The notes below the pieces were generated by a model. It did no database searches and had not been told where the DNA came from. It saw nothing but the letters and a program-made list of their open reading frames with translations. From NCBI GenBank assembly GCA_964559865.1, contig CAZLJD010000041.1, positions 10,343 to 74,342 of the forward strand: a DNA stretch of 64,000 bases. Direction: 5' to 3'. This document shows positions 4,945 to 51,476 of the stretch, in pieces (position 1 is the first letter of the stretch; the number at the start of each line of letters is the position of its first letter). The stretch is from an uncultured Synergistota bacterium (GTDB taxonomy: Bacteria > Synergistota > JAGHAJ01). The position numbers and the translations under genes were made by a program.

Positions 4945-5055
4945 CCTCCTACACCAAAGTCGAAAACTACCTACCCAACTGACCTACACAAACCAACAAA
5001 GGTATCCAAATTAAGAAGGCAAAACATTACAAACACAAGAGGGTTAAAACAGGAC

Positions 5056-5415: not shown

Positions 5416-5527
5416 TACTCAAAATAATTATATCACAATATCCCCTTTCAAAAGAAGAGCAAACGGTCTTTACTGAAATGTTCGAAGTTACAAAATTAAC
5501 ACACTATAGCGAATTCATGCCCAAAAC

Positions 5528-5555
5528 TTGACAATAGCTTCGGCAGTGGTATAAT
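5528..5555 (+). promoter_or_regulatory. Strong sigma70 promoter for the V-ATPase operon (TTGACA, 16 nt, TGgTATAAT)
   Basis: cTTGACAatagcttcggcagTGgTATAATac lies 30 nt upstream of the GGGAG RBS and ATG 5586. Confidence 0.6.
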
Positions 5556-5585
5556 ACTTTAAGTCTTCATAAGGGAGATGGGGTT

Positions 5586-5909
5586 ATGTCAATAGAGGAA
5601 ACTCTTTCCGAAATCTTGAAGATAGAGAAAGAAGCAGCAAGCATAGTTGAGAATGCAAAAAAAGAGGTTGAAGAGGCGAGAAGATCGTTCGAGAAGGAGA
5701 AAGAGGAATATAGTGAAAAGGCAATCGTAGAAGCACACCTCAATGCCGAAAGGATCTTAGAAGAAGCAAGATCCCACGCCAAGAAAAAGGCAGAAGACAT
5801 AATAACCCACAGCAAGGAGAAGGTATCCAAACTCCAGGCATTCGTTGCACAGAAGGAGCAAGCAGTTATAAAAAAAGTTATAAATGTAATGTGGGGAAAC
5901 GGCCAATGA
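5586..5909 (+). CDS. atpG: A/V-type ATPase small stator subunit (G/H family, coiled coil)
   Basis: 107-aa charged coiled-coil protein at the head of the operon. Confidence 0.55.
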   Translation: MSIEETLSEILKIEKEAASIVENAKKEVEEARRSFEKEKEEYSEKAIVEAHLNAERILEEARSHAKKKAEDIITHSKEKVSKLQAFVAQKEQAVIKKVINVMWGNGQ

Positions 5910-6973
5910 TATCGGAGTACTCAGCTCTTCTGGCAAGAATGAAAGCTGTAAAAAGTGACCTCTTGAGCAGGGAAACTTTTCTAAAGCTCGTCGAAGTAAA
6001 AACAAACGATGAGGTAGCAAGAATACTTCTTACTACTGCATACGGACCGTATATCAAGAAGCACAGCAAGGGTGAGCACTACAGGAGGGAATATATAGAA
6101 AGAGCCCTACGAGATAGTTTCATGGATGTGTACTTCAAGGCACTTGTATTTCTGCCAAAAAGTGCAGCGAAGATAGTAAAGGAAGCATTAAGGAGATTCG
6201 AATTAGAAAACATAAAGCTTATACTGAGAAGCAGGGGCAAAGAAGACGAGTTTGGACTTGTAAAAGAAGACCTCATAGATTTGCACTCCTACTCCAAGAT
6301 ACCATTTGAAGAGTTACTAAATCTGAACACGATTGAAGAGGTAGCAGAGCACCTTAGAGACACCCCTTACGGAAACACTCTAAGAAGGATATCAGAATCC
6401 TACAAGGAAGAGGGACTGTTCGCAATAGAGATGGGCCTTGACTACGAGTTTTTCAGAAGGCTTATAAGTCTCACAAGAAGCCTCCCGTTTCCAGATCAAG
6501 ATATCATACACTTCTACCTTGGGTTAGAGTGCGACATGTTGAACCTTCTCTGGATACTCCGTGCAAAGCTCATCCACAAATTCAGTGATGAAGTTGTATT
6601 CACATATACACTACCTTTTGGACACTTCATAAGAGACGCAACTCTAAGAAGGATCGTTAAAATAAACAGTATATCAGAGATGAAATCTGCACTGGAAGGC
6701 AATCCATGGGAAACCGTATTTGAGGGTAGCGATCACTTCTCCATCTCAACAGAGGTTAAAATGAAGAGAAAGTTCTACAACACAGTTATAAACTCACAAC
6801 TACTTAAAGCAAATCCGTTCTCAATAGCACCATTCATAGAGACACTTACATTAAAGGAAGTCGAAGTAACAGACATAACGACCATTATCGAAAGTAAAAG
6901 ATACCAATTAACGCTGGAAGAAATGCAAAAATACCTCATAACTGAAATACCATTAGAGGTGAGTACCTCGTGA
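5891..6973 (+). CDS. atpC: A/V-type ATPase subunit C (V0 d / AC39 family)
   Basis: EYSALLARMKAVKSDLL...ARILLTTAYG matches the Thermus subunit C N-terminus. Confidence 0.8.
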   Translation: MGKRPMISEYSALLARMKAVKSDLLSRETFLKLVEVKTNDEVARILLTTAYGPYIKKHSKGEHYRREYIERALRDSFMDVYFKALVFLPKSAAKIVKEALRRFELENIKLILRSRGKEDEFGLVKEDLIDLHSYSKIPFEELLNLNTIEEVAEHLRDTPYGNTLRRISESYKEEGLFAIEMGLDYEFFRRLISLTRSLPFPDQDIIHFYLGLECDMLNLLWILRAKLIHKFSDEVVFTYTLPFGHFIRDATLRRIVKINSISEMKSALEGNPWETVFEGSDHFSISTEVKMKRKFYNTVINSQLLKANPFSIAPFIETLTLKEVEVTDITTIIESKRYQLTLEEMQKYLITEIPLEVSTS

Positions 6974-8883
6974 CGATAGCAAAGCTAAGTCTGCTGCAAT
7001 GCATAGTGCCGAAAAGATATGCAGCCCCAATAACGCAAATGATATCCATACTTGGGGTAACAGAAGCGCAAAGCATAAAAGAACTTCAACTACAGTCCAG
7101 AGGTGTAGAACCACTCGAAGACAAAGATAGATCCAACAGATGTAAGATCGCACTCTCAAAAACTATCAACCTGATGAACTACCTGGAACTAGCTCCAAGA
7201 AAACTATCCGAGAAAATAGATCCAGCAATAGTAAACCCTCTAAGTGATGAAGATTTCCAAAAGCTGTCTCTATTAGAACAGAGAGCAAAAGGGATCGTCG
7301 AAAGGATAAACATTCTCAAAAGGGAAAAAGAGCGGCTGGAAAACTACACCACAAAGATAAAGATGCTGCAAGGCATAAATGTAGAAATGGATGTACTGAA
7401 GTCTTTAAGGTTCTCCAAATACTTCTTCGGGAGATTGCCTACTGCCCACCTGCCAAGATTGCTAAGAGGGCTTGGAGAAGTAAAAGAAAGCATCTTAGAA
7501 ATACTGCAGAGAGGAAAGGAAGATACTTTCATATTCGTGATAACCAGCGCTAAAAGGGCAAAAAGGGTAGAAAGGATTCTAAAAGCCTCTTTCTGCGAAA
7601 TAATAGACATACCTCTCAAATTTACCGGTCACCCCGAAGATATGCTCAAGAACATAGAAATCGAGCAAGAACGTACAGACATAGCTATCAAAAACTTCAG
7701 GCTAAAACTACATAGGATAGGATTAGCCAATCACGAGTGGATATACGCCCTATGGAATAAACTGAAGTGGTCAGAATTCATATTAAGAACTAACACCATG
7801 TTCGGTAAAACAAGACACTTTTCTATCCTCTCTTTATGGGTCCCAGAGGAGCATAAAGAGAAGATAGAAAGAGAAATAGACAAGATAACACAGGGAAGAA
7901 ACATATGCGAGTGGGTAGATGCAAAGGAGGCACGAAAGAGATACAAAAAGCTTAGGATACCTACCCTACTCAAGAACCGAGGTATATTCAAGCCATTTGA
8001 ACTGCTCATCTCCGCATATGGCATACCAAGGTACACTGAAATAGACCCCACTCCTCTGGTGGCAATAACCTTCACATTCATGTTTGGTATGATGTTCGGG
8101 GATGTGGGTCATGGTGCTGCTCTCACACTACTTGGGTACATCTTGCAAAAGTCATTAAAGAAAAGAGCACACGGATTCCTCAAGTTGCTAATAATATGTG
8201 GCATAAGCTCAATACTATGGGGTGCTTTATACGGAAGCCTCTTTGGATATGAGGATGTGATCCCTGCCATATGGACAAGCCCCATGCACGATGTACTCAG
8301 ATTTCTCGGTATATCTATAGTATGGGGCATCATCATGTTGATAACTGGTTACACACTAAACATCGTAAACAAAGTAAAAGAAGAGAGAATAAAAGAGCTG
8401 TTCAAAGAAGAAAAGGGCGTCCCAGGAATAACATTTTATCTATCCATCATCTTAACAATGATATGCTGGGTAGAGAAGTGGAATTATTATATACCGATGG
8501 CTATAGCCTTAGGGATACTGGGCATAATGTTTTTACAGGAACTAAAAGAAGGAGGAGGCGTATTCGAAGTATTTATAAAGCTATTCTCGTTCGTGATAGA
8601 AAACATAAGCAATACTATATCCTTCATCCGTGTGGGAGCATTTGCCCTTAACCATGTAGCACTATCCATGGTAATATTCACACTCAGCAACATGATTACC
8701 CCTACATCTACAGGATTAGTAATAAGGATAATGATAATCATATTTGGTAACCTTCTCATCATCCTATTTGAAGGATTCATCGTAGGTATTCAGGTAACAA
8801 GGCTTGAATTCTATGAGTTTTTCAGCAAGTTCTACCAAGGAGATGGTAGAAGGTTTAAGCCACTATCTTATATAAAGGAGTGA
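6970..8883 (+). CDS. atpI: A/V-type ATPase subunit I (116-kDa a-subunit)
   Basis: Soluble N-terminal half and multi-TM C-terminal half; 637 aa. Confidence 0.9.
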   Translation: MTIAKLSLLQCIVPKRYAAPITQMISILGVTEAQSIKELQLQSRGVEPLEDKDRSNRCKIALSKTINLMNYLELAPRKLSEKIDPAIVNPLSDEDFQKLSLLEQRAKGIVERINILKREKERLENYTTKIKMLQGINVEMDVLKSLRFSKYFFGRLPTAHLPRLLRGLGEVKESILEILQRGKEDTFIFVITSAKRAKRVERILKASFCEIIDIPLKFTGHPEDMLKNIEIEQERTDIAIKNFRLKLHRIGLANHEWIYALWNKLKWSEFILRTNTMFGKTRHFSILSLWVPEEHKEKIEREIDKITQGRNICEWVDAKEARKRYKKLRIPTLLKNRGIFKPFELLISAYGIPRYTEIDPTPLVAITFTFMFGMMFGDVGHGAALTLLGYILQKSLKKRAHGFLKLLIICGISSILWGALYGSLFGYEDVIPAIWTSPMHDVLRFLGISIVWGIIMLITGYTLNIVNKVKEERIKELFKEEKGVPGITFYLSIILTMICWVEKWNYYIPMAIALGILGIMFLQELKEGGGVFEVFIKLFSFVIENISNTISFIRVGAFALNHVALSMVIFTLSNMITPTSTGLVIRIMIIIFGNLLIILFEGFIVGIQVTRLEFYEFFSKFYQGDGRRFKPLSYIKE

Positions 8884-8889
8884 TGGATC

Positions 8890-9321
8890 GTGAACACGCT
8901 TATAGCGGTAATGGGAGGTATAGTGGGTATTACAATTGGCTATGGTTTATACTTAATGAAAAGGAAAAAAGGAGTAACAAAGCTACCACTATCCTTGATA
9001 AGCGTAGGAACATTCATAGGAATATTTACCCTTATATCTTTAAACCTTGGTCATGAAGCCTTGGCGTCAGCGAGTACCAACACGGTATCTGCTCTTGCAT
9101 CTCAAGGAGAAAAAGGCCTCGGTTACATAGGTGCCGCGCTTGCAGTAGGTTTAAGTGCTTTAGGAGCGGGCATAGGTGTTGCCTCAACAGGTGCAGCAAC
9201 AATAGGTGCGATGTCCGAGAAGCCAGAGATGATGGGAAAGTCACTGGTATTCGTGGGACTTGCTGAAGGTATCGCAATATACGGTGTGGTAATAGCCATA
9301 ATGATCCTCAGCAAGATATAG
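8890..9321 (+). CDS. atpK: A/V-type ATPase proteolipid subunit K (c)
   Basis: GTG start. Gly/Ala-rich helices with the carboxylate in GLAEGIAIYG, plus an extra N-terminal helix. Confidence 0.8.
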   Translation: MNTLIAVMGGIVGITIGYGLYLMKRKKGVTKLPLSLISVGTFIGIFTLISLNLGHEALASASTNTVSALASQGEKGLGYIGAALAVGLSALGAGIGVASTGAATIGAMSEKPEMMGKSLVFVGLAEGIAIYGVVIAIMILSKI

Positions 9322-9323
9322 TC

Positions 9324-9638
9324 ATGGAAAAGAGAATATTTGTATTAGGCAGCAAGGATACGGTGGTAGGCTTTAGGCTTGTGGGTGTAGAAGGCTTTGT
9401 AGTAAGAAACGAAAAGGAGGCAGAAGACGCACTAAGAGCCCTTGTAGAAAGTGAAAATACAGGGCTCCTAATCATAGATAAATCTACAGCCAACATGGTC
9501 AGGGAATTGGTAAACAACATAAAGATAGCCTCCAAGCTACCCATAATTGTAGAAGTAGCAGATCCAAAAGAAGGCAGCAAAACGGAAAAAGACGCAATAA
9601 CAAAATTCATAAAAGAGGCCATCGGTATAAGTGTATAA
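9324..9638 (+). CDS. atpF: A/V-type ATPase subunit F
   Basis: KRIFVLGSKDTVVGFRLVGV motif; 104 aa. Confidence 0.8.
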   Translation: MEKRIFVLGSKDTVVGFRLVGVEGFVVRNEKEAEDALRALVESENTGLLIIDKSTANMVRELVNNIKIASKLPIIVEVADPKEGSKTEKDAITKFIKEAIGISV

Positions 9639-9650
9639 GAGGGGATAAAA

Positions 9651-10250
9651 ATGTCTGAAAGAGATGCTTTAGAAGCATTGAGAAACGACATTCTACAAGA
9701 GGCTGTTTTGCAGAAAGAAAGGATTATAGAAAAGTTCAATGAAGAAAAGGAAAGAGAATGGAAGGAATTCAAGCAAAAGGTAGATGCAAAGGTGAAATCT
9801 ATAGAGGAAGACGCAAGGAGAAAGGCATCTCAAATAGAAAAGAAGATCATATCTCTGGCAGAGCTGGAGGCAAACAAGCAACTATACACAGCAAAAGAGG
9901 AAATCATCAAACATATATTTCAAAAGGCAAAAGAAGAAATACTACAAATAAAGAGGAGAAAGAGCATCTATACCATAATACTCGAAAAACTCATATCAGA
10001 AGTAATAAGGACAATGGATACCCAAAAGATAAAGCTAAGGATTAATCCAGAGGATGTAGAGCTGGTAAAGGAAAAAGTGTTACCACTATTTAAGGGAAAG
10101 GATATAGAAATTGTAGAAGACGAGAACATATCCATAGGTGTTATAGGTGAATCTGAACATATGATATTCGATAATACTCTCGAAGGTGTATGGATGAGAA
10201 AGGAAGAAAGGCTTAGAACTGTCATAACAGAAGAACTTTTCGAGAAATAA
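9651..10250 (+). CDS. atpE: A/V-type ATPase subunit E (peripheral stalk)
   Basis: 199 aa, N-terminal coiled coil and C-terminal globular part, in the expected operon position. Confidence 0.75.
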   Translation: MSERDALEALRNDILQEAVLQKERIIEKFNEEKEREWKEFKQKVDAKVKSIEEDARRKASQIEKKIISLAELEANKQLYTAKEEIIKHIFQKAKEEILQIKRRKSIYTIILEKLISEVIRTMDTQKIKLRINPEDVELVKEKVLPLFKGKDIEIVEDENISIGVIGESEHMIFDNTLEGVWMRKEERLRTVITEELFEK

Positions 10251-10259
10251 CCCAAAGGA

Positions 10260-12071
10260 GTGCATGGGGACATGAGTGAGATCATAGGCAGTATAGGGAG
10301 GATAAATGGACCAGTTGTAAAAGCAAAGGATGTAAAAGAGGCAATGATGTCAGAAATGGTGGAAGTGGGGGAATCCAAACTCATAGGAGAAATAATCCGT
10401 TTAGAAGATGATATAGCTACCATACAGGTGTACGAAGAAACCGAAGGCTTGAAAGTTGGCGAACCCGTGTACGGAACAGGACAACTACTTTCTGTCGAGC
10501 TTGGTCCTGGTTTGTTAACAAACATATTTGATGGCATCCAACGACCACTAACAGCAATAAAGAGTGCAACTGGAGACTTTATAGGGAAAGGGGTATCCAT
10601 ACCACCCTTAGACAGAAAAAAGAGATGGCCAACAAAGATGTTAGCAAAAAAGGGTGATACAGTTTCGGAAGGAAACATCATTGCAACGATCAAAGAAACA
10701 GAGCTCATAGAACACCGCGTACTTGTACCTACAGGCATCAAAGGAGAAGTAATTTCTGCTGTGCCAGACGGAGACTACAATATAGAAACTACCATATTAA
10801 CGGTAAAAACAGAAGACAGAGGAGAAGTGGAACTTAAACTCTACCATAGATGGCCGGTCAGACACCCAAGGGCTTACAAAGAGAAATTACTACCTGATAC
10901 TCCCCTACTCACTGGCCAAAGAGTAATAGACACATTTTTCCCTATAGCCAAGGGAGGTACTGCCGCTATCCCTGGCGGATTCGGCACAGGTAAAACAGTT
11001 ACGCAGCACCAACTAGCAAAGTGGTCTGATGCACAAATCATAGTATACATAGGTTGCGGTGAACGGGGAAACGAAATGACAGAGGTCCTTGAAGAATTCC
11101 CCAAACTGATAGATCCCCACAGCAATAGACCCTTAATGGAGAGAACTATCCTGATAGCAAACACATCTAACATGCCAGTAGCAGCAAGAGAGGCATCGAT
11201 ATACACAGGTATAACCATAGCAGAATATTACCGTGATATGGGCTACGATGTTGCCATAATGGCAGATTCCACATCTCGATGGGCTGAGGCATTGAGGGAG
11301 ATTGCAGGAAGATTGGAAGAAATGCCAGCAGAAGAAGGTTTTCCTGCTTACCTCCCTACAAAGCTTGCAGAATTCTACGAAAGGGCTGGAAAGGTGTTAA
11401 CACTCAGCGGAAAGGTAGGTTCAATAACTATAATTGGTGCTGTATCGCCTCCTGGTGGTGATTTCTCAGAGCCAGTTACCCAGTATACAAAGAGATTCAC
11501 AAGATGTTTCTGGGGGTTAGACAAAAACCTTGCAAGTGCAAGGCACTTTCCTTCAATAAACTGGCTCGAAAGCTATAGTGAATACATAAACGACCTGCAA
11601 AAATGGTGGGAGGAAAATGTAGATAAATCCTATAGAGAAATAAGGAATGAGGCAATGGAGCTACTACAAGAAGAAAGCAAGCTTCAGAGGATAGTCCAGC
11701 TCATAGGGGCAGGTGTTCTACCAGACAGCCAAAAGCTTATACTTGAAGCTGCTAGAATGATAAAAGACCAGTTCCTTAGGCAAAACGCATTCAGCGAAAT
11801 AGACAGCTACTCTACCCCAGAAAAGCAAATACACATCCTAAAACTGATAATGGCATACTACCAGTGGGCAAGAAGACTGATAAACAAAAAAATACCAATA
11901 AGCAAAATAACCTCACTACCTGTTACCACAAAGATCATGCATGTAACTGCAGAGACCCCGAACGAGCAGATAAAAGAGAAATGCGAATCATTAATGAAGG
12001 AGCTTATTGAATCGTTCAAAGGGTTGGAATCGGAGTTTGAAAGGATCAGTAAAAAGCGCACCCAGGGGTGA
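10260..12071 (+). CDS. atpA: A/V-type ATPase catalytic subunit A
   Basis: P-loop GGFGTGKTV, a non-homologous insert region, 603 aa, no intein. Confidence 0.97.
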
Positions 12072-12077
12072 TAAAAA

Positions 12078-13484
12078 ATGCTTGAGTACAAAGGTATAAA
12101 AGAGATAAATGGCCCTCTCATAGTAATAGAAGGTATAAAAGATGTAGGATACGGTGAGATGGTAGATGTAATATCTCAAGATGGCAGACGTAGATCCGGC
12201 AAAGTAATAGACATAAGCGAAAAGTTAGCAGTGGTTCAGGTTTTTGAAGGCACAGATGGACTCATACCAAAAGATACCAAGGTGAGATTCAGAGGAAAGA
12301 CCTTAAGGATACCTGTATCCGAAGAGATGCGAGGGAGGATATTCAACGGCATAGGGGAACCCATAGACGGTGGACCTCCGGTTACACCAGAGGAATACTT
12401 AGACATCAATGGTCTTCCACTGAACCCTGTATCAAGAGCATACCCCAGAGACTACATCCAAACAGGAATATCCGCCATAGATGGCAACATGACTCTAATA
12501 AGGGGACAGAAACTACCAATATTTTCTGGAGACGGTTTGCCTCATAATGAAATAGCTGCACAGATTGCAAGACAGGCAAAGATAAGCGAAGAAGAGAATG
12601 CAGAATTTAGTATAGTATTTGCTGCAATGGGTATAAAGCACGATACCGCAACATTCTTTAAGCAGAGCTTCCAAGAAAGTGGTGCACTTAAGAATGTAAT
12701 TATGTTCCTAAACCTTGCGGATGACCCAGTAATAGAGAGAATCGTCACACCGAGATGTGCACTGACCGCAGCAGAGTATCTTGCATTCAAAAAGGACATG
12801 CACATACTCGTAATAATGATAGATATGACTAACTACTGTGAGGCATTAAGGGAAATGTCGAGCAGGAGGGGTGAAGTCCCAGCAAGAAAGGGCTACCCAG
12901 GATACATGTACTCAGACCTTGCAACAATATACGAAAGAGCAGGAAGAATCATAGGAAAGAGGGGCTCCATAACTCAGATACCCATATTAACGATGCCCAA
13001 TGATGATATAACGAATCCTGTGCCAGACCTAACAGGCTACATAACAGAAGGACAAATAGTTTTAAGCAGAGACCTGTACAATAAGGGCATATACCCTCCA
13101 ATAAACATACTCCCATCTCTATCAAGATTGATGAAGGACGGCATAGGAAAGGGCAGAACAAGAGAAGACCATCCAAATCTATCTGCACAGCTATATGCAG
13201 CTTACGCACACAGCCAAGAGGTGAGAAATCTTGCATCAGTGATTGGTGAAGAAGAATTAAACGAAACAGAAAGGCTATACCTAAAGTTTGGAGAAGAGTT
13301 TGAAAGAAAATTCATAAATCAAGGTATGAACGAAGAAAGGACCATGGAAGAAACATTAAATCTGGGGTGGGAAGTATTATCAATTCTCCCGAGATCCGAA
13401 CTTTACCGTTTAACAGAAGCAGAGCTCAACAAATACTACAAAAAGGAACTGGTGAAAGATGAACATATCTCCAACCAAGAGTAA
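12078..13484 (+). CDS. atpB: A/V-type ATPase subunit B
   Basis: Typical B-subunit motifs; 468 aa. Confidence 0.97.
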
Positions 13485-14085
13485 TCTCATAAAGACAAAA
13501 GATATATTAGAACTTGCAAAAATAGGCTATTCTCTGCTCGATCAAAAGCGAAGTGTTCTGATCTCAGAGATGGCTCAACTAATTGACAGAGCAAAAGAGA
13601 TACAAGGAGAAATTGATAAGAGGTTTAATAGAGCATACCAATGCCTCAAGGTAACGAACGTAACAATGGGTATAGACAATGTGGAAAGGATCGCCATAGG
13701 AACACCTCCAACAGCAACCGTAGAGATCATAGAGAAAAGTACTATGGGTGTCACTATTCCTATAATGTCTCTCAAGAAAGACGACGAAAAACAATCAAAG
13801 CTACCCAACTACAGCATCTATAGAACAACCCAAAGCTTGGACACAGCGATAAGAGAGCTGAAAAACATGCTTGAGTTTATCGTGGAGCTCGCAGAGGTAG
13901 AAACATCTGTGTACAGGCTGGCAAAGGAGATAAAATCTACCCAAAAGAGAGCAAATGCACTTGAGTACATACTCATACCTCGCTACGAAGCAACAAAAAA
14001 ATTCATAGAAGAAAGCCTCGAAGAAAAGAGCAGAGAAGAGTTCTTTAAACTCAAAGTCTTAAAGAAAAAGCACTCAAAGGTATGA
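13459..14085 (+). CDS. atpD: A/V-type ATPase subunit D (central stalk)
   Basis: 208 aa coiled coil; 26-nt overlap with atpB. Confidence 0.9.
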
Positions 14086-14117
14086 CAACACCCCCATAAA
14101 TATGCTATAATATTTGT

Positions 14118-15305
14118 ATGAAGCAACATATAAGAATACTCCACACTGCAGATTGGCATGTGGGACTTGAGTCTTGGAAGGCAGACATCCCAACTGACAG
14201 AACAGAAGAGATAAAAGACGCACTTCAATTCATGCTCCAGTACGCCCAAAACAATAATATTGACCTTATTATCATATCTGGAGACATCACGGAGCACAGA
14301 ACGTCACCAAGTGCAGTAGAACACCAAATAGTGCTACACTACCTGAACGAATTTTCAGCAGTAGCACCAGTAGTTGTCGTTACTGGCAACCACGATTGGG
14401 TAGGTCTGCCACAGTTAGATATATTTTCGAAGAAAACTAACATCCACCTCATAAATAGATTTTCAAATCCAAACGGTTCACCAGCATCAAGGACACTTCT
14501 CATAAAAGAGCAGAAAGTAAAGGTATTTGGCCTACCTTACTTCGATGTTCGGAATCTTATAAAAAAGTACATAGAAGAATTGTCCAACACAAGTATGGAC
14601 ATGCTAAAAATACACACATCCAAGATAGAGGAAGCATGCGAACCTGATGCGTGGAACATACTCTCTGCGCACATAGCAATAGAAGGTATAAAGTATAGAA
14701 ACTACATAGAAGATTCCTTAGAATTCAGCATAAACCCTAAACTGCTACCCACAGTAGATTACATTGCATTAGGGCACATACACTCCCAAATGCGTATATC
14801 GGAAGCACCAACCACAACATGGTTTTCTGGTGCCATAATTCAGAACGACTTTGGAGAAGAACAAAATCGTGTGGGATTCCTCATAGTAGACTTAGAAGAG
14901 GGGAAAAACCCACAGGTTCAACCAGTTGAAACACCCCACAAAAAGCTAAAAAGTATAAATGTTACATTAAACACAAACATGGAAAATTGCCTTAAAGAAA
15001 TAGAAGAAAAAGCCAACATACCCGAGGACTACCTGAGGATCACACTAAGGGTTAATCACATTCAAGATCTTCCGCCACTATGGATGTCAAGGATAAGGAA
15101 CATAAGCAACAAGATCGTAAAGGTAAATGTAGAAGTGGATAAAAAGGAAGATACCATAAACATATCCGGGATAAAAGAAAAGGCAAAGAACATAAAAGAG
15201 CTATTTGAGGAGTATATTGAAAAGACAGAAAATCTTACTGAGGAGGAGAAAGAAGCCATAATAAACTACTTCACTACCATATACGAAGAGGTAAAGGAGA
15301 CATGA
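14118..15305 (+). CDS. sbcD: Exonuclease SbcD (Mre11-type calcineurin-like phosphoesterase)
   Basis: IRILHTADWHVG, IISGDITEH and VTGNHDW motifs. Confidence 0.9.
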   Translation: MKQHIRILHTADWHVGLESWKADIPTDRTEEIKDALQFMLQYAQNNNIDLIIISGDITEHRTSPSAVEHQIVLHYLNEFSAVAPVVVVTGNHDWVGLPQLDIFSKKTNIHLINRFSNPNGSPASRTLLIKEQKVKVFGLPYFDVRNLIKKYIEELSNTSMDMLKIHTSKIEEACEPDAWNILSAHIAIEGIKYRNYIEDSLEFSINPKLLPTVDYIALGHIHSQMRISEAPTTTWFSGAIIQNDFGEEQNRVGFLIVDLEEGKNPQVQPVETPHKKLKSINVTLNTNMENCLKEIEEKANIPEDYLRITLRVNHIQDLPPLWMSRIRNISNKIVKVNVEVDKKEDTINISGIKEKAKNIKELFEEYIEKTENLTEEEKEAIINYFTTIYEEVKET

Positions 15306-17767
15306 GGCCTGAGAGGTTAAAAATAAGAAACTTTCTCGGTATAGTAGAAGCAGACATAAAATTCACAGATAGGAACGTATTTGCCATATTAGGAGATAAC
15401 GGTGCTGGTAAGTCCAGCATATTGGAAGCAATGTACTTTGCACTATTTGGAGAGACACTCCGATTCGGAGGAAAGGAAAAGAGATCTGCCATAAATAGAC
15501 ACTCTACTGAGGAAAAGCCAAAAGCAATCGTAGAGTTTACATTTTCGAACGCAAGTAGCAAATACAGGATAAAGAGGGTGATCTACGCAAGCAAACAATC
15601 AACCACCTCGATACTCGAGAAACTGTCTCCTATGAATACAACTTTTACAAGAGATATAGACAAAGAGATAAGGAAACTCATACAGGTAGACAAAGAGATA
15701 TTCAAAAAAACCATCCTTCTACCGCAAGGAGAGATGACGGGGTTTATATCGAGCAGAAAGGCAGAAACCGTGAAGAACATACTAACAGGCATATTCGGTA
15801 TAAGCACATTATCAGAGATCAAGAAGATTGTTTCACAAAAGCACAGTGAAGTAAAAGGCAAATATGAAGAAAAACAATCAAGAGTAGAAGCACTAAGCAC
15901 AATAGGAGGAAGGATACTCGAAGACGCATTAAACGAAAGCAAATCTCGTATAAAAGAGGCAGAGAGAGAGGCAAAAAGGTTAAAAGAAGCAATAAACAAA
16001 TTAAACCAAGAAATACAAACCACCATTAACCTTCTTGCTACTCGAAAGAGGATCCAAGAAAAAGAAGCAAAAATAAGACAAAAAGAGGCAGAAATCAAAG
16101 AGCTCTCAGAAAGGGTGAAGGAAGACGAACTAATCGAGAAAATACGAACTATAAAGCCATACTACGAAATACTTGAAGAAAAGGGGAAAAGGATAAATGA
16201 TGTTAGAAAAGCAATAAAGGAAACAACAGAAAAAATAGAAGAACTGGAGAGAAACAAATCAGAAATCGAAAAAAGACTCCAAAAAATCAAAGAAAGGCTG
16301 AACACATACGAATTGTGCAGACCTTTACATAAACAGTTCACAGAACTTCTACAAGCTATCAAGACAAACAAGACAAACAAAGGAAAGATAGAACATTCGC
16401 TCTGGAAGGAACAAAAAGAAGCCGAAAGCCTCAAATTAGAGTTAACAAGGCTGATTGAAAAGAAAAAAGATCTGCCATATTCCGAAAGAGAGCTACTTAT
16501 TATGAAACTAAAAAAGGATCTACAAGTGGGGGATAAATGTCCCATTTGCGGAAACACCATAGAAAACCTCGAAGCACACAGAAACCATATAGATACAGAG
16601 ACGCTAAAGACCGCCATGGAATTAGAAACAAACATAGAGAAGCTCAAACAAGAAATACAATCCTATAAAAAAGTTATTCTATCCTTAGAGGAGCAAGCAA
16701 ACAATCTATCATTAGAGATAACAAGACAGGAAGAAGAACTAAAAGGGTTGCAAGACGAAATAGAAAAAAAGACCGGGATCCTGGCAAAGCAATTTCAAGA
16801 AAACTTAGAGAAACTAACCAAGCAGAAAAACGCATATGAAAATGCTTACATCAGGGCAGAAACTACATTGGAAAACCTGAAAAAAACAGCAGAGGAATAC
16901 CAAAAAGCACTCCAAACATTCATCAATGAGCACGAGAAAGAGAAATTGAGATTCGACAGTAAATTCAAGCAAGCAGGCATTGACCAAGATACATTTCTAA
17001 AATACAAGGATAGGGAACCAACAGATGCAAAAAAGAGGGTTCAACAACTACAAACAGAAATCCAGCAATTAAAAACAGACATAGCATCAGAAAAAAGTTT
17101 AGTTGACACAGAAACTCCTATCTCTGAGGTAGAAAGGTTGCTCAAACAAAGAGAAGATGAAAAAAGCGAAAAGGAAACAAAGTTAGAAGAGGTAGCAAAA
17201 CTTCAAGGCAGTCTAAGAAAAGAGATCGAAAATATTCAAAACAGAATAGAAGAACTTGAAGAGCTAAAAGAACAGGTAAAAAAGGTGGAAAGAGAGTACA
17301 TCACAACAAGAAAGTTAAACTACTATCTTGAGAGCAATAGATTCCCTGCATATGTATCAGACTACTACCTCAACGCCATAGTGGAGAGGGCGAACCACAT
17401 ACTTTTCAGGTTTTTTAGCGGCAAATACACACTAAGTACCCAGAACAGTGAACTAAGAATAATAGACAAAAACCTGCCTGATAATGATGTCTCCATAGAC
17501 AGCCTTTCGGGGGGAGAAAAAGTACTCGTATCAATGGCTATTGCGATGGCCATAACTGAGCTTACAACAAATCACATAGACATGTTATTTATAGACGAGG
17601 GTTTTTCTCCCTTAGACAATAACAACATTCAAGAAGTCGCAAAAGAGATACAGTTACTCGAAAGCACAAACAAGGTCATAGGTATAGTTACACATAATCA
17701 GGACTTCGCCGAGCAGTTCAACCACATACTAAAAGTGGAAAATGGGAGGGTAGAATGGCTAAGATAG
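15302..17767 (+). CDS. sbcC: Exonuclease SbcC (Rad50-type SMC ATPase with CxxC zinc hook)
   Basis: N-terminal Walker A GDNGAGKSS. Long coiled coil with a central hook DKCPICGN. C-terminal signature LSGGEK and Walker B LFIDEGF. Confidence 0.9.
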   Translation: MRPERLKIRNFLGIVEADIKFTDRNVFAILGDNGAGKSSILEAMYFALFGETLRFGGKEKRSAINRHSTEEKPKAIVEFTFSNASSKYRIKRVIYASKQSTTSILEKLSPMNTTFTRDIDKEIRKLIQVDKEIFKKTILLPQGEMTGFISSRKAETVKNILTGIFGISTLSEIKKIVSQKHSEVKGKYEEKQSRVEALSTIGGRILEDALNESKSRIKEAEREAKRLKEAINKLNQEIQTTINLLATRKRIQEKEAKIRQKEAEIKELSERVKEDELIEKIRTIKPYYEILEEKGKRINDVRKAIKETTEKIEELERNKSEIEKRLQKIKERLNTYELCRPLHKQFTELLQAIKTNKTNKGKIEHSLWKEQKEAESLKLELTRLIEKKKDLPYSERELLIMKLKKDLQVGDKCPICGNTIENLEAHRNHIDTETLKTAMELETNIEKLKQEIQSYKKVILSLEEQANNLSLEITRQEEELKGLQDEIEKKTGILAKQFQENLEKLTKQKNAYENAYIRAETTLENLKKTAEEYQKALQTFINEHEKEKLRFDSKFKQAGIDQDTFLKYKDREPTDAKKRVQQLQTEIQQLKTDIASEKSLVDTETPISEVERLLKQREDEKSEKETKLEEVAKLQGSLRKEIENIQNRIEELEELKEQVKKVEREYITTRKLNYYLESNRFPAYVSDYYLNAIVERANHILFRFFSGKYTLSTQNSELRIIDKNLPDNDVSIDSLSGGEKVLVSMAIAMAITELTTNHIDMLFIDEGFSPLDNNNIQEVAKEIQLLESTNKVIGIVTHNQDFAEQFNHILKVENGRVEWLR

Positions 17768-18849
17768 ACCCACGTGAATTTATAAAAGAGCTAAAGCCAC
17801 ACGCAGATTGGGGCATAGAACACATACAATCGGTAGAGGAATTGGAAAGACAAGAAGAGGAAAAGATACATCCAAAAGTTATAACAGACAAAGACATCAA
17901 TGAAACGGAGATCTCATTAGATTCATGGAATAAATGGAAAGAGTCATACAAACCCCGTACCTTGTTCAAACCAGAGTCAGTAGTGTTTATAGACGGAAGG
18001 ATGCGTGTACACAGTAGGTTTATCCTGCATGACAGAAACCCTGCTATCATAGGAGAAACTATAGCTGGTGGTATCATCCTAAAAGGAGGAAAACTCTTTC
18101 TTGACTTCTCAAGCAACAAGCCACCAAAGATAATGAGGGTGCTCACTCTACCAGTGCAAGAAAGAGAAAGAGCAAAATCCATGGGCCTCAATGAACCCAT
18201 TCAAATACCCATCATATCCACCAACAGGTCCATAGAGCTTCACATAGTCTCATCAGATACAAAGGCATCAGAATCAGAAAGGGCATACTCCGCCCTGTTA
18301 GAAACAATGAGACTACTCGAAAGAGAGGTAGTAAACCACTACTTCTCAGAATCCAATCACTTTATAATCAAAGACGGCACACTGAGGCCGCCAGACAGAG
18401 AATTTATAAAAGGTAGGGGCCCTATCGGGCTAATAAAACGGATACACCAAGAAGAGATACCACCTGACTTCTTTGAAAGATTTATATACATGCTGGAAAG
18501 AGGTGAAAGAACCCCTTTCTTCTGCTACCGTATCTCGGAAAAACACACAACGATAAGAGTCATATCTTACATGAGGATAGCAGAAAAATTCCCAAGTGAA
18601 CACCCCATAAGGGGAATAGTAAAAGTAGAGTTATTGTCAGATGAAAATAGTATAGATAATAGGGAAAAAGAGGAAATAGCAGAAGCACTCGACTTTGTCA
18701 GCAGCTTGCTGCCAAAACTCACAAAGATACTGCCCATCCCACGATCTCCAGAAAATATATTTCCCATAATGTCGCTGGAAGATGCGCTTAGTAATTTCTT
18801 TCTTTCGTCTGATGTCGTAAAAACATCTTTTGAGAGGTGGTTAGCATAA
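17755..18849 (+). CDS. nurA: NurA-family 5'-3' nuclease (RNase-H-like fold)
   Basis: DG motifs VVFIDGRMRV and FIIKDGTL, 364 aa. Sits between sbcC and herA with 13-nt overlaps on both sides. Confidence 0.6.
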   Translation: MAKIDPREFIKELKPHADWGIEHIQSVEELERQEEEKIHPKVITDKDINETEISLDSWNKWKESYKPRTLFKPESVVFIDGRMRVHSRFILHDRNPAIIGETIAGGIILKGGKLFLDFSSNKPPKIMRVLTLPVQERERAKSMGLNEPIQIPIISTNRSIELHIVSSDTKASESERAYSALLETMRLLEREVVNHYFSESNHFIIKDGTLRPPDREFIKGRGPIGLIKRIHQEEIPPDFFERFIYMLERGERTPFFCYRISEKHTTIRVISYMRIAEKFPSEHPIRGIVKVELLSDENSIDNREKEEIAEALDFVSSLLPKLTKILPIPRSPENIFPIMSLEDALSNFFLSSDVVKTSFERWLA

Positions 18850-20774
18850 TGAAACCCATAGGAACCGTTACGGGTATAAACCCGATAACGCCATATGAAT
18901 TCTATGTAAGGCTAAAAGTAGAGAACGGAAAACCCATCTACATGTTGCAGATGGACGAGATAGTCAAAGCCGAGTATGAATATAAAAGGTTTGGTAAACT
19001 CAGGATATACGGGGTAGTAGTAGAAAACACTTGCAGGTGGGACCAAAATGACATTACAGGATACAAGGAAGATATCATAGCCTCTGGTGGCATGATAGGA
19101 ATACCAATATACTTAGCAAAAGTAGCAACCACGAGAATAATGAAATACATTAATGGAAGATGGATCGAAGATGAAATCTCGGTACCACCTCCCGCTGGAA
19201 CAGAGGTAGAACCAGTGGAAGAAGACGAAACAGACATCTCTCTTGCATTTGACAATCTGAAAGAAAAAGGTAGAGCCCTTCCTATAGGAGTCCTAACAAA
19301 TGGAAGCGTTGCATACCTCGACACAGATTACATACTTGGCAACAACGGAGCACACATAAATGTATCAGGCCTATCCGGTGTAGCAGCAAAAACATCTTAC
19401 ACAACATTCCTCATCTACAGCATGTTAAACAGCACCTCCGTAACGAAGGAACTGGCATCCTCGAGATTCATCATTTTCAACGTAAAGGGAGAAGGACTAC
19501 TCTTTCTGGACAGATGGAACAAGGAGTGGAAAGAAAAAGAAAGGACAGAAGACGAAGACTTCAAGAAATGGTGCGAAATGTTCAACAGGATGGGAATCAG
19601 ACCTAGCGTTTTTAAGAATGTGGAGTTTTACTCACCAAGGGGAAAGCTAAAGAAACCAGATGTGAATTACAGAGTAGACGGCAAAGTGAAAATATTTGGA
19701 TGGGATGCACTGGATGTTGTTACACTGGGACTCATCGAGTTCTTGTTTGACCCTTCTGAGCTTTCTGAAAATGTGAACATACAGCTTACCGTATCCGCAC
19801 TCTCAGAAATATTAGAAAGAAATTACTCCACACTCAAAAACGAGGTATTAAGAAAACTGAGAAAGTCTTCCAAAGATGAACCCAATGAAGGTGACAGCAG
19901 GGATAAACCCTTCCCATTTATAGATGAGATCGGATACGATCTCGACGGCCTCACAGAAGACCAGAAAGTAAGAGCATACTTGCAGGCATGCAGAACAGAA
20001 CCTAAAAAGATCTTAGAAGCTTATGGAATTCCTCCAACTATAAATGCCCTTGCAAACCTTCTAAAAGAAGAGAAAATAAAAGACGAGTTAAGCGAAGAAA
20101 TGATACAAGACAAGACAATAGGAGCAGTCTACAGGAGAATAAAAGCAGCACAAAAGCTTGATATATGGAAAGTATGGGTAGACATGAGCACAGAATCCAT
20201 GTTCTTCACACCATCAAAATATGAGGAACCCTCTTATCACATAAACTGGGATAGAAAAGGAGGAATAACGGTAATAGACATCTCCAAGCTGCGACACAGA
20301 GCGCAGATATTCGTTGTAGGCTCCATACTGAAACAGGTACTGCAAAAGAAAGAAGCGGGGTTGATAAAGGAACCCGTGTTTATATACCTCGATGAATTGA
20401 ATAAGTATGCTCCTCGCAGTGGAGGTGGACCCCTGGGAAGCATATTCAGAGACATTGCAGAAAGGGGAAGATCTTTTAAGATCATACTCATTGGAGCAGA
20501 GCAAACAGCATCTGAAGTAGACTACAGGGTGATAACACAGGCATCTACCACGGTAGTAGGCAGGCAAAAATTGGCAGAGCTGAAAAAAGACGAATATGCG
20601 CATCTGGTTGGCGCTCAAAAGGAGAAAGCAGCACATCTCGTACAAGGAGAAGTAATCATAGACCAACCATTTCTAAGAGTACCACTGCTGGTAAAATTCC
20701 CTCTAACACCGTGGTCAACGAGAGAGGACTCAGAGGTACCAGAGAGACAGGAGAATTTCGATGACTTCTTGTGA
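18837..20774 (+). CDS. herA: HerA-family hexameric DNA translocase/helicase (HAS-barrel + RecA-like ATPase)
   Basis: N-terminal barrel, LPIGVL...SVAYLDTDYILGNNGAHINVSGLSGVAAKTS, Walker B VFIYLDELNKYAP, and a long helical insertion. Confidence 0.7.
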   Translation: MVSIMKPIGTVTGINPITPYEFYVRLKVENGKPIYMLQMDEIVKAEYEYKRFGKLRIYGVVVENTCRWDQNDITGYKEDIIASGGMIGIPIYLAKVATTRIMKYINGRWIEDEISVPPPAGTEVEPVEEDETDISLAFDNLKEKGRALPIGVLTNGSVAYLDTDYILGNNGAHINVSGLSGVAAKTSYTTFLIYSMLNSTSVTKELASSRFIIFNVKGEGLLFLDRWNKEWKEKERTEDEDFKKWCEMFNRMGIRPSVFKNVEFYSPRGKLKKPDVNYRVDGKVKIFGWDALDVVTLGLIEFLFDPSELSENVNIQLTVSALSEILERNYSTLKNEVLRKLRKSSKDEPNEGDSRDKPFPFIDEIGYDLDGLTEDQKVRAYLQACRTEPKKILEAYGIPPTINALANLLKEEKIKDELSEEMIQDKTIGAVYRRIKAAQKLDIWKVWVDMSTESMFFTPSKYEEPSYHINWDRKGGITVIDISKLRHRAQIFVVGSILKQVLQKKEAGLIKEPVFIYLDELNKYAPRSGGGPLGSIFRDIAERGRSFKIILIGAEQTASEVDYRVITQASTTVVGRQKLAELKKDEYAHLVGAQKEKAAHLVQGEVIIDQPFLRVPLLVKFPLTPWSTREDSEVPERQENFDDFL

Positions 20775-21522
20775 TCTAACCATAGATGTAAGTCTCTTGC
20801 CCAACAGAATATCAAATTCAGACATAGCTATAGGAGTAGATGTGCTTAGAGCAAGTTCGAGCATAGTAACTGCATTGGCTAACGGTGCGGAATGTGTAAT
20901 AATCACTTCATCTGTAAAGAAGGCAAAAAAACTCAAAAAAAGCATACCAAATTCCATACTCGCAGGCGAAAGAAACACAGTAAAGATAAAAGGATTCGAT
21001 GTAGGAAACTCACCATCAGAGATGTCTAAATGCAACTTAAGAGACAAAACTGTAATACTCACAACTACTAATGGAACAAAACTTCTAAAAAAGTTAAAAG
21101 AGCACTCAAAAGTAGTCCTCACAGCATCTGTGTTAAATCTATCCTCCATAGCAAATACAATAAGAGAAGCGCATCACTCAAAGGGGATAAAAAGCGTACT
21201 TATCGCCTGTGCTGGTGTAAAGGGAAACACATCCATAGATGACATAGCTATAGCAGGTTTACTAATAAAGGAAATAACCAAACTTACAAAAGCAAAGCTA
21301 ACAGACTCAGCAGAAATCTCAGTAAGGCTCTTCAACTCTTATAGGTCCATAAAGGAGATCTTTCTAAACTCTGAAAGTGGTAGGAGGGTCATCGCTGCAG
21401 GGTACAGCGATGACATAGACTTCTGTGCACAGATGAATCTCTATCCCCTATCACCATTACTCTTTGAAGACACATACCTGTATCTCAAAACCTTCAAGGG
21501 GTTAAGCGCTCTGCCCTTATAG
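20761..21522 (+). CDS. 2-phosphosulfolactate phosphatase (ComB) family protein
   Basis: IGVDVLRASSSIVTALANGAECVI motif. 14-nt overlap with the end of herA. Confidence 0.6.
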   Translation: MTSCDLTIDVSLLPNRISNSDIAIGVDVLRASSSIVTALANGAECVIITSSVKKAKKLKKSIPNSILAGERNTVKIKGFDVGNSPSEMSKCNLRDKTVILTTTNGTKLLKKLKEHSKVVLTASVLNLSSIANTIREAHHSKGIKSVLIACAGVKGNTSIDDIAIAGLLIKEITKLTKAKLTDSAEISVRLFNSYRSIKEIFLNSESGRRVIAAGYSDDIDFCAQMNLYPLSPLLFEDTYLYLKTFKGLSALPL

Positions 21523-24164: not shown

Positions 24165-24962
24165 TTACTCCAACCTTAGGTAAACCGTCCTACCCCGATA
24201 CCTCAGACTATCAATATTGTTGAAGTTGTACCGCAAATCATTTACGAAAGAAGATATATATCCCCTATAGCTAACATAAATCTTGGCATTACCAGAGCTG
24301 TAGTCTGCCACAACTACTTTCCTCACAGAGGGTATGTGTTGCAGTCTGTCTACTATCTCATTCACCTGACTAAAACTCTCTATCCCGGATACTCTCAATA
24401 TGTACTTGTGCAATCTCCTGCTAGAGCCACCTGCAGGCACAAGTCCCACAAGATATTTGCCAAGCATCGTAGCCGCTTTGAGAAGAGCCTTACTCCTTGC
24501 CTCACCTCTGGTATATCCTATAGCTTTTGACACAAAAGACTTTGCAAAGATAAAACGACCATCTTTAGTTCTGTAAGCCTTTGCAGATATGGAAGCTGTG
24601 CCTGTATACAAACCAAACTCATTTTGTCTTGCCCTGTGCATAACAGCTCTGCCCTTTAAAAAAACATCTATCCTGTAAAGACTACCCAGCTTCATTATGC
24701 CGTCTACATCGCCCTTTAGCGCAAGAATAGCAGCCTTGCTCCTGCGTATACGATTTATCTGATTTTTGTCAACCACCTTGAAACCGGCATTCATCAGTAT
24801 CTCTATAATCCTTGCTTCAGCTGAACCAATCGTGCTATTGTACCCAAAACTGTAACCCTGATATATAATCACAGCTATCCGCTGGTTTCTGGTTATGGCA
24901 AAAGCAATAGAAGAAGAAACCAGCACAAAGAGCAGACAAAACAGCAGCACCCTTCTCATCAC
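24165..24962 (-). CDS. Exported protein with a CsgG-N/TolB-N-like alpha/beta domain (uncharacterized)
   Basis: Signal peptide MMRRVLLFCLLFVLVSSSIAFA. Carries the pattern RIAVII...SAEARIIEILMNAGFKVVDKNQI...GRA, also present in the neighbouring CsgG-like and FlgT-like genes. Confidence 0.45.
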   Translation of the reverse strand: MMRRVLLFCLLFVLVSSSIAFAITRNQRIAVIIYQGYSFGYNSTIGSAEARIIEILMNAGFKVVDKNQINRIRRSKAAILALKGDVDGIMKLGSLYRIDVFLKGRAVMHRARQNEFGLYTGTASISAKAYRTKDGRFIFAKSFVSKAIGYTRGEARSKALLKAATMLGKYLVGLVPAGGSSRRLHKYILRVSGIESFSQVNEIVDRLQHIPSVRKVVVADYSSGNAKIYVSYRGYISSFVNDLRYNFNNIDSLRYRGRTVYLRLE

Positions 24963-26332: not shown

Positions 26333-26348
26333 GTAAACTTGCCTCCCT

Positions 26349-26792
26349 TCACTTTATCTTCACACAATACAGTATTATCTTCTTGAGCGGTATAGCAACC
26401 CTCACATAGTAATAGTCATCCTGTATCCACCCTTTTAGCAGGTGTTCCCTCACTATCTTTCCAGAAACAGTTATTGATACAGCATTAGAAGGTACTCCAT
26501 ACTTCAAATTATATAAGACAAGCAGTGCGTTCCTCCTTGCATCTACAATTGCTGCCCTTCTCGCCAAAAGCTTAGACTGACCAGACGATGATCCCCCATA
26601 CTGCGAAAGAGGTGCCCTACCAAGAACATAAAGCAACTTACTATCCCAGTCCACCTTACCCCACGAAAACTTTTGCAGAAAATCATTATCCCAGTTTAAC
26701 TGTTGGAGTTCATCAACTGTAAGGGCATATGCAACACAATTCATCCCTATCAAAACAATAGCAAATACACTTACCCAAGAAACCATCTTCAT
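26349..26792 (-). CDS. LPP20-family (FlgP-like) exported protein
   Basis: Signal peptide plus the LPP20 motif SKLLARRAAIVDARRNALLVLYN. Confidence 0.65.
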   Translation of the reverse strand: MKMVSWVSVFAIVLIGMNCVAYALTVDELQQLNWDNDFLQKFSWGKVDWDSKLLYVLGRAPLSQYGGSSSGQSKLLARRAAIVDARRNALLVLYNLKYGVPSNAVSITVSGKIVREHLLKGWIQDDYYYVRVAIPLKKIILYCVKIK

Positions 26793-26804
26793 AACTTCCT
26801 CACC

Positions 26805-35934: not shown

Positions 35935-36108
35935 AACTATCCCTCCTTTTACACATTTTTAATAATTATACCACCCCAAAAGGGCTTGTAAAAGTACAAA
36001 ACATACTAAAAGGTCCAAAACCGCAATAATGTCCTACCTTCTAACCCAAAGAAATTACCTTATACAGTAGGGTAGCCTCTCTCAGTCTTCTAAAACTCCC
36101 ATTTAAAC

Positions 36109-51315: not shown

Positions 51316-51476
51316 CTTCTCTCCTCACCCCCAACAAGCTGAAAATCAGCTAAACATCTTATTTATTGAAATAACAGTGAGATTTAAAAAATAACAGCCA
51401 ATTTTTCAAATAAAAGGATTTTGTCTCTCTGAAGCTAATTATACTATATGAAACAAAAGCAAAGGAGGTTGGTATA

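Follow-up and report, generated by a model that had tools for sequence, protein, structure and literature searches.

Where genes that process DNA ends stand directly behind an operon of another function, the question is whether the two belong together and where the repair genes came from. This question is raised by a 64,000-nucleotide stretch of DNA from an uncultured Synergistota bacterium (contig CAZLJD010000041.1; the whole stretch is referred to here as the window), in which a V/A-type ATPase operon is followed at once by four genes, sbcD (mre11), sbcC (rad50), nurA and herA. The original prediction, made from the sequence, took the four genes for an archaeal-style end-resection module, either acquired laterally or expressed together with the ATPase from one promoter. 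The analysis described here leads to a different answer, which we regard as likely: the genes would constitute a bacterial-type SbcDC-NurA-HerA end-repair operon with a promoter of its own, and its position behind the ATPase would be incidental.

The product of the first gene, SbcD, contains the Pfam Metallophos domain (PF00149, E 9e-15) and scores 92.3 bits against the TIGR00619 sbcd model, above the cutoff of 77.65. Its top match in the Protein Data Bank (PDB) is Mre11 of Thermotoga maritima (3QG5_C, E 4e-48), aligned over the full length, and the motifs DWH, GNHD and GHIH are found at residues 12, 90 and 219. By its phosphoesterase fold, its metal-binding motifs and its score beyond the curated threshold, the protein is predicted to be an SbcD/Mre11 nuclease. 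SbcC carries the AAA_23, SMC_N and SbcC_Walker_B domains, and its top PDB match is the Rad50 protein of T. maritima (3QF7, E 2e-43). A Walker A motif (GDNGAGKS), a signature motif (LSGGE) and a Walker B motif (MLFIDE) lie at residues 31, 736 and 761, a CPIC zinc hook occupies residues 413-416 in the exact middle of the 821-residue protein, and the residues E, K, L, R and Q make up 56% of its middle region. The score of SbcC against TIGR00618 (188 bits) is under the equivalog-style cutoff of 478, and its split ABC head, coiled coil and central CxxC hook are those by which an SbcC/Rad50 protein would be recognised. For both SbcD and SbcC, the bacterial sbcd and sbcc models outscore the archaeal Mre11 and Rad50 models.

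The third protein has no match in Pfam, NCBIfam or PADLOC, and the Pfam NurA model (PF09376) does not detect it even at E<=1, so that it falls outside the Pfam definition of NurA. When compared with the PDB using phmmer, it matches T. maritima TM1739 (1ZUP, E 5e-20) and NurA of Deinococcus radiodurans (7F6D_H, E 9e-8). A word-indexed search found 3 homologous proteins, and an exhaustive HMMER search found 118 representatives and provided a 36-sequence family alignment, in which D80, E189 and D207 are invariant; the profile of this family matches 1ZUP at 3.5e-69 and D. radiodurans NurA at 3e-61. The AlphaFold (AF2) model of the protein, which has a predicted local distance difference test score (pLDDT) of 90, retrieves in Foldseek 1ZUP (1.5e-20), 7F6D_G (1.5e-15) and Sulfolobus NurA (2YGK, 1e-5), with Pyrococcus NurA (3TAZ) and then Argonaute PIWI domains as further matches. 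The modelled RNase H-like (PIWI-like) fold and the conserved acidic residues point to a NurA of the bacterial clade. The Pfam NurA model recognises 15 of the 36 family members, with a best E of 3.7e-12, and the window protein is not among them; this miss is a failure of model sensitivity and no evidence against homology.

Similar comparisons assign the fourth protein to HerA. It matches D. radiodurans HerA (7F6D_B) in phmmer with an E of 5e-63 and has in common with it the P-loop SGxSGVAxKTS, which, together with the Walker B motif FIYLDE, is invariant in a 28-sequence HerA family alignment. The profile of this family matches Deinococcus HerA over its full length at 9e-153, as against 2e-4 for Sulfolobus HerA (4D2I), and a HAS-barrel is matched in 8 of the 28 members. 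Foldseek comparison of the AF2 model (pLDDT 86) gives an E of 9e-48 and a template modelling (TM) score of 0.83 with 7WRW, and an E of 5e-23 with Sulfolobus 4D2I. On the other hand, DUF87 of Pfam is reached only at E 0.087, and scans of Pfam, NCBIfam and PADLOC return faint C-terminal HerA matches alone. On sequence and model, the protein is best described as a putative HerA translocase of the bacterial clade. Its own P-loop reads SGLSGVAAKTS (residues ~174-183), without the canonical GK dipeptide of GxxxxGK[ST]. A reading of the last two proteins as something other than NurA and HerA, as suggested by the profile-library scans, was rejected, the PDB sequence and fold comparisons being decisive. 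The same matches confirm the identities that the original prediction had given to all four genes. The check that it had proposed, by the NurA PF09376 and DUF87 profiles, matches neither protein, and to take this for a refutation would be an error, since membership of NurA and HerA is clear by comparison with the PDB.

The four genes are translationally coupled, with overlapping starts and stops and a Shine-Dalgarno (SD) sequence at each junction. Between sbcD and sbcC the overlap is an ATGA at 15302-15305 with GGAG ahead, and between sbcC and nurA it extends over 13 nucleotides (nt) at 17755-17767, preceded by GGGAGGG. For herA, the longest open reading frame (ORF) in the map runs from 18837 to 20774 (645 aa), from which a second 13-nt overlap (18837-18849) had been deduced. 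However, the GTG at 18837 sits within the SD AGGTGG, the public gene call chooses the ATG at 18849, and the alignment with Deinococcus HerA begins at residue 4 of the form that starts there. For these reasons the GTG is an unlikely start, and the overlap is most likely limited to the 1 nt that the ATG at 18849 shares with the nurA TAA (TAATG), the longer one being an artefact of the choice of the longest ORF. A 14-nt overlap with an AGGAG SD joins herA to a comB-family gene. Start and stop overlaps are common across the whole compact window, and those of the cassette are therefore unremarkable in themselves. The gap between atpD and sbcD measures 32 nt (14086-14117), and no terminator-like hairpin was found in it (RNA fold z = -1.2); neither was a terminator found after comB. 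Apart from the nurA/herA junction, the layout originally described is reproduced, namely the four ORFs in the ORF map, the ATGA and the first 13-nt overlap in the junction sequences, and the start of sbcD 32 nt past atpD with no intervening terminator. The range 14118-21522 that was given for the four genes does hold them, together with comB as a fifth gene that went unmentioned.

Table 1. The sbcD-sbcC-nurA-herA cassette and adjoining features, in window coordinates.
Feature	Position	Strand	Description
sbcD/mre11	14118..15305	+	395 aa; predicted nuclease subunit
sbcC/rad50	15302..17767	+	821 aa; predicted SMC-like ATPase, coiled coil and zinc hook
nurA	17755..18849	+	364 aa; predicted bacterial-clade RNase H-like 5'-3' nuclease
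herA	18849..20774	+	641 aa from ATG 18849; predicted HAS-barrel and FtsK/HerA-type ATPase, bacterial clade
comB-family 2-phosphosulfolactate phosphatase gene	20761..21522	+	253 aa; PF04029, E 2e-65
Extended -10 element TGCTATAAT	14103..14111	+	promoter scan, 11/12 matches
V/A-type ATPase operon, upstream neighbour	5528..14085	+	promoter 5528-5555; genes from 5586 to the end of atpD at 14085

As to the origin of the cassette, the closest homologue of every protein is bacterial (Mre11, Rad50 and TM1739 of T. maritima; HerA and NurA of D. radiodurans). The NurA family profile does not reach archaeal NurA at E<=1, and HerA obtains 15.6 bits against the archaeal NCBIfam model NF040819, whose cutoff is 970, so that it is not of the archaeal type. 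In fold, the archaeal proteins are similar but distant, as the Foldseek values for 2YGK (E 1e-5) and 4D2I (E 5e-23) indicate. These affinities agree with the published identity of <20% between bacterial and archaeal NurA-HerA, which also differ in structure (PMC9960219). All four proteins can accordingly be placed by sequence affinity in bacterial clades, archaeal NurA and HerA being remote relatives only.

The composition of the cassette is native as well. Its GC content at third codon positions (GC3) is 0.36-0.42, compared with 0.418 +/- 0.035 for the window, and its codon-usage distance is within about 2 standard deviations of the window, so a compositional signal of recent transfer was rejected. 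No integrase, transposase or other mobile-element gene is found among the annotated neighbours, which include bacterial LysM/M23 peptidase, metK, recG and RNase-type genes; the nearest named relatives of the window, itself a metagenomic contig, are Synergistota metagenome-assembled genomes (MAGs), and every relative that was examined carries the cassette. In composition, mobility genes and distribution, the locus does not have the features of a laterally acquired island. Neither the archaeal style of the module nor its acquisition as an island is thus supported, with Deinococcus HerA so much closer than the archaeal one and with the cassette occurring in three bacterial phyla in housekeeping contexts.

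The comparison of related loci separates the cassette from its surroundings. A contig scan with one protein query gave three close loci, and the comparison was extended through contigs encoding distant HerA homologues. The window and L013-L015, from three assemblies with ~80% HerA identity, have the order V-ATPase...atpD-sbcD-sbcC-nurA-herA-comB. In five distant Synergistota MAGs (L003, L004, L011, L012 and L016; 52-58% HerA identity) the order is RNase G-sbcD-sbcC-nurA-herA, followed by an MBL-fold gene and the peptide chain release factor gene prfB, and in Coprothermobacter platensis (L007) the same four genes follow a DUF2148 gene. In Atribacterota MAGs (L009), sbcC-nurA-herA-YjbQ is seen on a contig that begins just upstream of sbcC. 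The middle genes of these cassettes, which have no Pfam annotation, all match the NurA family HMM (E 1.7e-31 to 1.6e-97). The V-ATPase genes are absent upstream of the cassette in the five distant Synergistota MAGs and in C. platensis, the upstream side not being visible in Atribacterota, and adjacency to them is limited to the relatives with ~80% HerA identity. Behind herA, comB is found only in the close relatives L013-L015, its place being taken elsewhere by the MBL-fold gene, YjbQ or a 156-aa ORF. Because the gene order is kept while the flanking genes vary, the conserved unit is the four-gene cassette; the ATPase and comB are lineage-specific neighbours, and comB is a passenger.

At three further loci, in Thermotogota and one other lineage (L005, L017 and L018), herA occurs by itself, and no nurA is found within 8-10 kb of it. 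These lone herA orthologues (L005 10001-11869, L017 8001-9809 and L018 3873-5675) belong to Pseudothermotoga, Thermotoga and the other lineage, and are preceded by ribF, an ABC transporter gene or a flagellin gene. In these organisms HerA may work with no NurA encoded next to it, or its partner may come from a TM1739-type gene at a distance.

No specific account of the cassette in Synergistota, Atribacterota or Coprothermobacter came up in a literature search. In Oceanithermus profundus, a member of the Deinococcota, sbcD-sbcC lies directly downstream of nurA-hepA, a cluster that has been interpreted as an archaeal-like architecture for double-strand break (DSB) repair (PMC5448004). The linkage of sbcCD with nurA-herA in bacteria is therefore known already, and the window is a further case that widens its phyletic reach.

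The same loci bear on how the cassette is expressed. Across the atpD-sbcD gap, ATGACA-18-TGCTATAAT at 14082-14111 agrees with the promoter consensus at 11 of 12 positions and ranks second among the promoter-like sites of the 18 kb scanned. Its -35-like ATGACA (14082-14087), which overlaps the atpD stop codon, is not conserved in the L013 sequence, and the promoter element claimed is therefore limited to the extended -10. Adjoining the sbcD ATG, the 15 nt TATGCTATAATATTT are identical in L013, and the rest of the spacer has diverged. An exact TGnTATAAT stands ahead of sbcD in all seven Synergistota-type loci (the window, L013, L003, L004, L011, L012 and L016). Since this extended -10 element is kept in every one of them whatever the upstream gene, we infer that a promoter of its own drives the cassette. 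The geometry of the element depends on the context. Behind the V-ATPase it begins at -15, ahead of an ATG start that lacks an SD, the end of the -10 TGCTATAAT being 6 nt from the sbcD ATG, whereas behind RNase G it begins at -29 to -33 relative to the start of sbcD, with a short leader and a strong SD in between. In the lineage of the window, this geometry and the absence of an SD make a leaderless sbcD message probable. Leaderless translation requires AUG, and the starts fit this requirement, as the two loci of leaderless geometry use ATG and the leadered ones TTG, GTG or ATG. An AAATAT-N6-ATATTT palindrome around the -10 was considered as a possible operator; it is A/T-rich and imperfect in L013.

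Extended -10 elements are also frequent in the window at large, where TGnTATAAT has 10 matches against 3.66 expected, a number reached in none of 100 shuffles. Seven of the 10 copies lie upstream of ORF starts, at distances of 6-46 nt, and the organism appears to rely on extended -10 promoters. The sites include 347-355, 5427-5435, 5547-5555, 14103-14111, 35965-35973 and 51470-51478, and among all copies in the window only the sbcD site has leaderless spacing.

The upstream operon encodes proteins with V_ATPase_I, ATP-synt_C, F, E, A, B, D and AC39 domains, and by pattern match its promoter at 5528-5555 agrees with the consensus at 12 of 12 positions. The original prediction had this single promoter co-regulate the ATPase and the repair genes. 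The promoter pattern itself holds. Co-regulation from it is not supported, the conserved extended -10 of sbcD at all seven loci and an adjacency that occurs only in close relatives speaking against it, and the lack of a terminator in the gap speaking for some read-through from atp. The position of the cassette behind the V-ATPase and its coupling to comB represent lineage-specific tight packing and not a functional or evolutionary unit, and the adjacency to the ATPase looks incidental, without evident biological significance. The same kind of packing against unrelated metabolic genes is known from Thermus, in which nurA-hepA is 4 bp away from a malic-enzyme gene upstream and 13 bp away from gcvT downstream (PMC5448004).

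Gene identities, catalytic motifs, coupling, the conserved cassette and the promoter element are directly observed, and a mechanism can be proposed on them in which the enzymatic activities and the interaction of the complexes are supplied by homology. SbcCD, a Mre11-Rad50 of the T. maritima type with a zinc-hook coiled coil, would recognise and tether DNA ends and clip blocked or hairpin ends. A HerA hexamer would then dock through its HAS-barrel on a NurA dimer, translocate on duplex DNA with ATP and feed NurA, whose D-E-D active site would degrade the 5' strand to leave a 3' tail for RecA. In Deinococcus, NurA-HerA carries out translocation-dependent resection of the 5' strand (PMC9960219), and archaeal HerA-NurA works together with Mre11-Rad50 (PMC3326311, PMC2288612).

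Several points weigh against the proposed end-repair operon. The activity of the proteins, the interaction of SbcCD with NurA-HerA and the transcript structure in this organism are predicted from homology and sequence, and the leaderless message from the promoter geometry and the missing SD. With no terminator past atpD, the cassette is probably reached by part of the transcription that starts at the atp promoter. The window NurA and HerA go unrecognised by the Pfam models for NurA and DUF87. Finally, deletion of nurA or herA in D. radiodurans and Thermus thermophilus has modest or even opposite effects on damage resistance, and the role of the pair is disputed (PMC9960219, PMC4663267).

These weak repair phenotypes of the Deinococcus and Thermus knockouts (PMC9960219) are among the arguments for reading the cassette mainly as an anti-phage or anti-plasmid defence, in which HerA and a nuclease effector, with an SMC-like sensor, would destroy foreign linear DNA instead of repairing the chromosome, after the fashion of Sir2-HerA, DUF4297-HerA, TdpAB or Lamassu. 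Blackwood et al. have speculated that HerA-NurA may guard against extrachromosomal DNA (PMC3326311). PADLOC returns weak matches to HerA models (E 5e-6), mad8 (2e-8) and LmuB (2e-27, to the SbcC head), and in Foldseek the NurA model resembles chain G of TdpAB (E 1.2e-5). However, the HerA matches of PADLOC are partial, at E 5e-6 or weaker, and the affinity of HerA is for the chromosomal protein of Deinococcus (9e-153) and not for the antiphage HerAs (1e-5 to 1e-6), the NCBIfam HerA_antiphage model being matched at 21 bits for a cutoff of 800. The partner of HerA is NurA, with no Sir2, DUF4297 or other known defence effector present, and SbcC, the partner of SbcD, is a Rad50 of full length with a zinc hook; the locus is thus none of the known HerA-based anti-phage systems (Sir2-HerA/Nezha, DUF4297-HerA, TdpAB). 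Its contexts (RNase G...prfB, atp...comB) are stable housekeeping ones, unlike a variable defence island. A primary function in defence is quite improbable on this evidence, and a side role in degrading foreign DNA is conceivable. A different objection is that the two gene pairs might be merely juxtaposed by the compactness of the genomes, SbcCD and NurA-HerA working in separate pathways, for example with HerA acting with RecJ as in Deinococcus. Such an arrangement would be in line with the lone herA of Thermotogota, which has neither nurA nor sbcCD nearby, with the Thermus nurA-hepA context unrelated to DNA metabolism (PMC5448004), with the description of the link between sbcCD and HerA-NurA in Deinococcus as unresolved (PMC4663267), and with the equally tight coupling of passengers such as comB. 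It is nevertheless unlikely, as the order of the four genes persists in at least three phyla and in four flanking contexts in which the passengers comB, MBL and YjbQ change, as archaeal Mre11 physically binds HerA (PMC2288612), and as Oceanithermus joins the same pairs in the opposite order, nurA-herA-sbcD-sbcC (PMC5448004). This opposite order suggests that the two pairs have been joined more than once.

What remains of the archaeal reading is a module of archaeal type that would have arrived laterally, in a single island along with the archaeal-type A/V ATPase or beside it, and would be transcribed jointly with that operon from the single promoter at 5528-5555. The terminator-free gap of 32 nt and the adjacency kept in three close-relative assemblies are compatible with it, the same four functions cluster in thermophilic archaea (PMC2288612), and an ancient archaeal origin has been proposed for bacterial nurA-herA (PMC5448004). 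Still, this account is very improbable and already largely refuted by the profile affinities (15.6 bits against 970 for NF040819, and bacterial homologues nearest for all four proteins), by the native composition, with no integrase or transposase among the annotated neighbours, and by the conserved promoter that heads the cassette. Coprothermobacter and the more distant Synergistota have the cassette without the V-ATPase, and nurA and herA are coupled neighbours, an arrangement also seen in Thermus (PMC5448004). A gene that may record how the cassette came to its present place is metK, which is ~5-12 kb from it in both the V-ATPase and the RNase G contexts (window 1477-2676, minus strand; L011 16273-17469, plus strand); this proximity suggests that a local rearrangement, not transfer, shifted the cassette. 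In archaea, herA and nurA flank mre11-rad50 and are hence separated, the order in Sulfolobus being herA-mre11-rad50-nurA.

The closest known systems each share part of the organisation proposed here, a bacterial end-repair operon with its own promoter. D. radiodurans NurA-HerA (7F6D, 7WRW/7WRX; PMC9960219) has the same full-length HerA homology, P-loop, NurA homology and adjacent nurA and herA, but the identity of HerA is only ~28%, and HerA residues ~300-468 of the window, a helical insert, are unaligned in the pairwise phmmer comparison. The window pair sits behind sbcDC in one operon, whereas the connection to SbcCD was left open in D. radiodurans (PMC4663267). T. maritima provides the best solved matches for SbcD and SbcC (Mre11-Rad50: 3QG5, 3QF7, 3THO) and for NurA (TM1739: 1ZUP), and its Rad50 is similarly short, with a central CxxC hook as in the window SbcC; unlike the Thermotogota loci examined, with their isolated herA, the window holds all four genes in one unit. 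The nurA-hepA-sbcD-sbcC cluster of O. profundus, compared here by its published description, groups the same four functions in a bacterium, with nurA-herA first and sbcDC after it (PMC5448004). The archaeal operon of Sulfolobus and Pyrococcus (PMC2288612, PMC3326311) co-transcribes the same four functions, presumably with the same division of labour, end recognition by Mre11-Rad50 and resection by HerA-NurA. Its proteins are only remotely related to those of the window, however, and its gene order differs. A pin motif and an additional insertion set bacterial NurA apart from archaeal NurA, which has neither (PMC9960219).

Other features of the neighbourhood may be mentioned briefly. Downstream of the cassette, comB (plus strand) and a LysM/M23 peptidase gene (minus strand) overlap convergently by 82 nt (window 21441-21522), which leaves no room for terminators between the two converging units; the same 82-nt overlap is found in L013 (12572-12653). 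Upstream, on the minus strand at 3685-5415, a gene for a 119-aa winged-helix protein (HTH_24/DnaD_N-like) with its own TGATATAAT is oriented divergently to the V-ATPase operon and may encode a regulator of the ATPase; the adjoining Na+/H+ exchanger gene is a hint of some connection with ion specificity. A gene run around one for a CsgG-like TPR-containing lipoprotein (24165-28891, minus strand), several of which have no Pfam domain (264, 147, 383 and 308 aa), is kept in L013 and replaced in L014. The genes recG and TSCPD-domain ribonucleotide reductase (38288-40354 and 42727-44931, both minus strand) lie ~18-24 kb downstream; they belong to DNA metabolism and are unlinked to the cassette.

The structure of bacterial NurA-HerA has been solved and a resection mechanism proposed, but its role is disputed, and its relation to SbcCD in Deinococcus has been explicitly described as unresolved (PMC4663267, PMC9960219). 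A coupled sbcD-sbcC-nurA-herA cassette in several deep-branching anaerobic and thermophilic phyla constitutes comparative evidence that both complexes cooperate in bacteria as they do in archaea, and it points to culturable organisms, such as C. platensis, in which this can be studied. Moreover, since the Pfam NurA and DUF87 models miss this clade, automated annotation gives its members as 'hypothetical' or 'ATP-binding protein'. More tentatively, and as a possibility rather than an expectation, SbcCD and NurA-HerA in Synergistota, Atribacterota and Coprothermobacterota might form a single four-component resection machine with a dedicated promoter, leaderless in the present lineage, which would serve as the main DSB end-processing pathway and possibly replace RecBCD, AddAB or AdnAB. 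If so, the reversed arrangement in Oceanithermus would mean that co-expression had been selected for repeatedly and independently, the cassette would be a bacterial and genetically tractable counterpart of archaeal Mre11-Rad50-HerA-NurA, and it would bear on whether bacterial SbcCD works with HerA-NurA, the question left by the work on Deinococcus.

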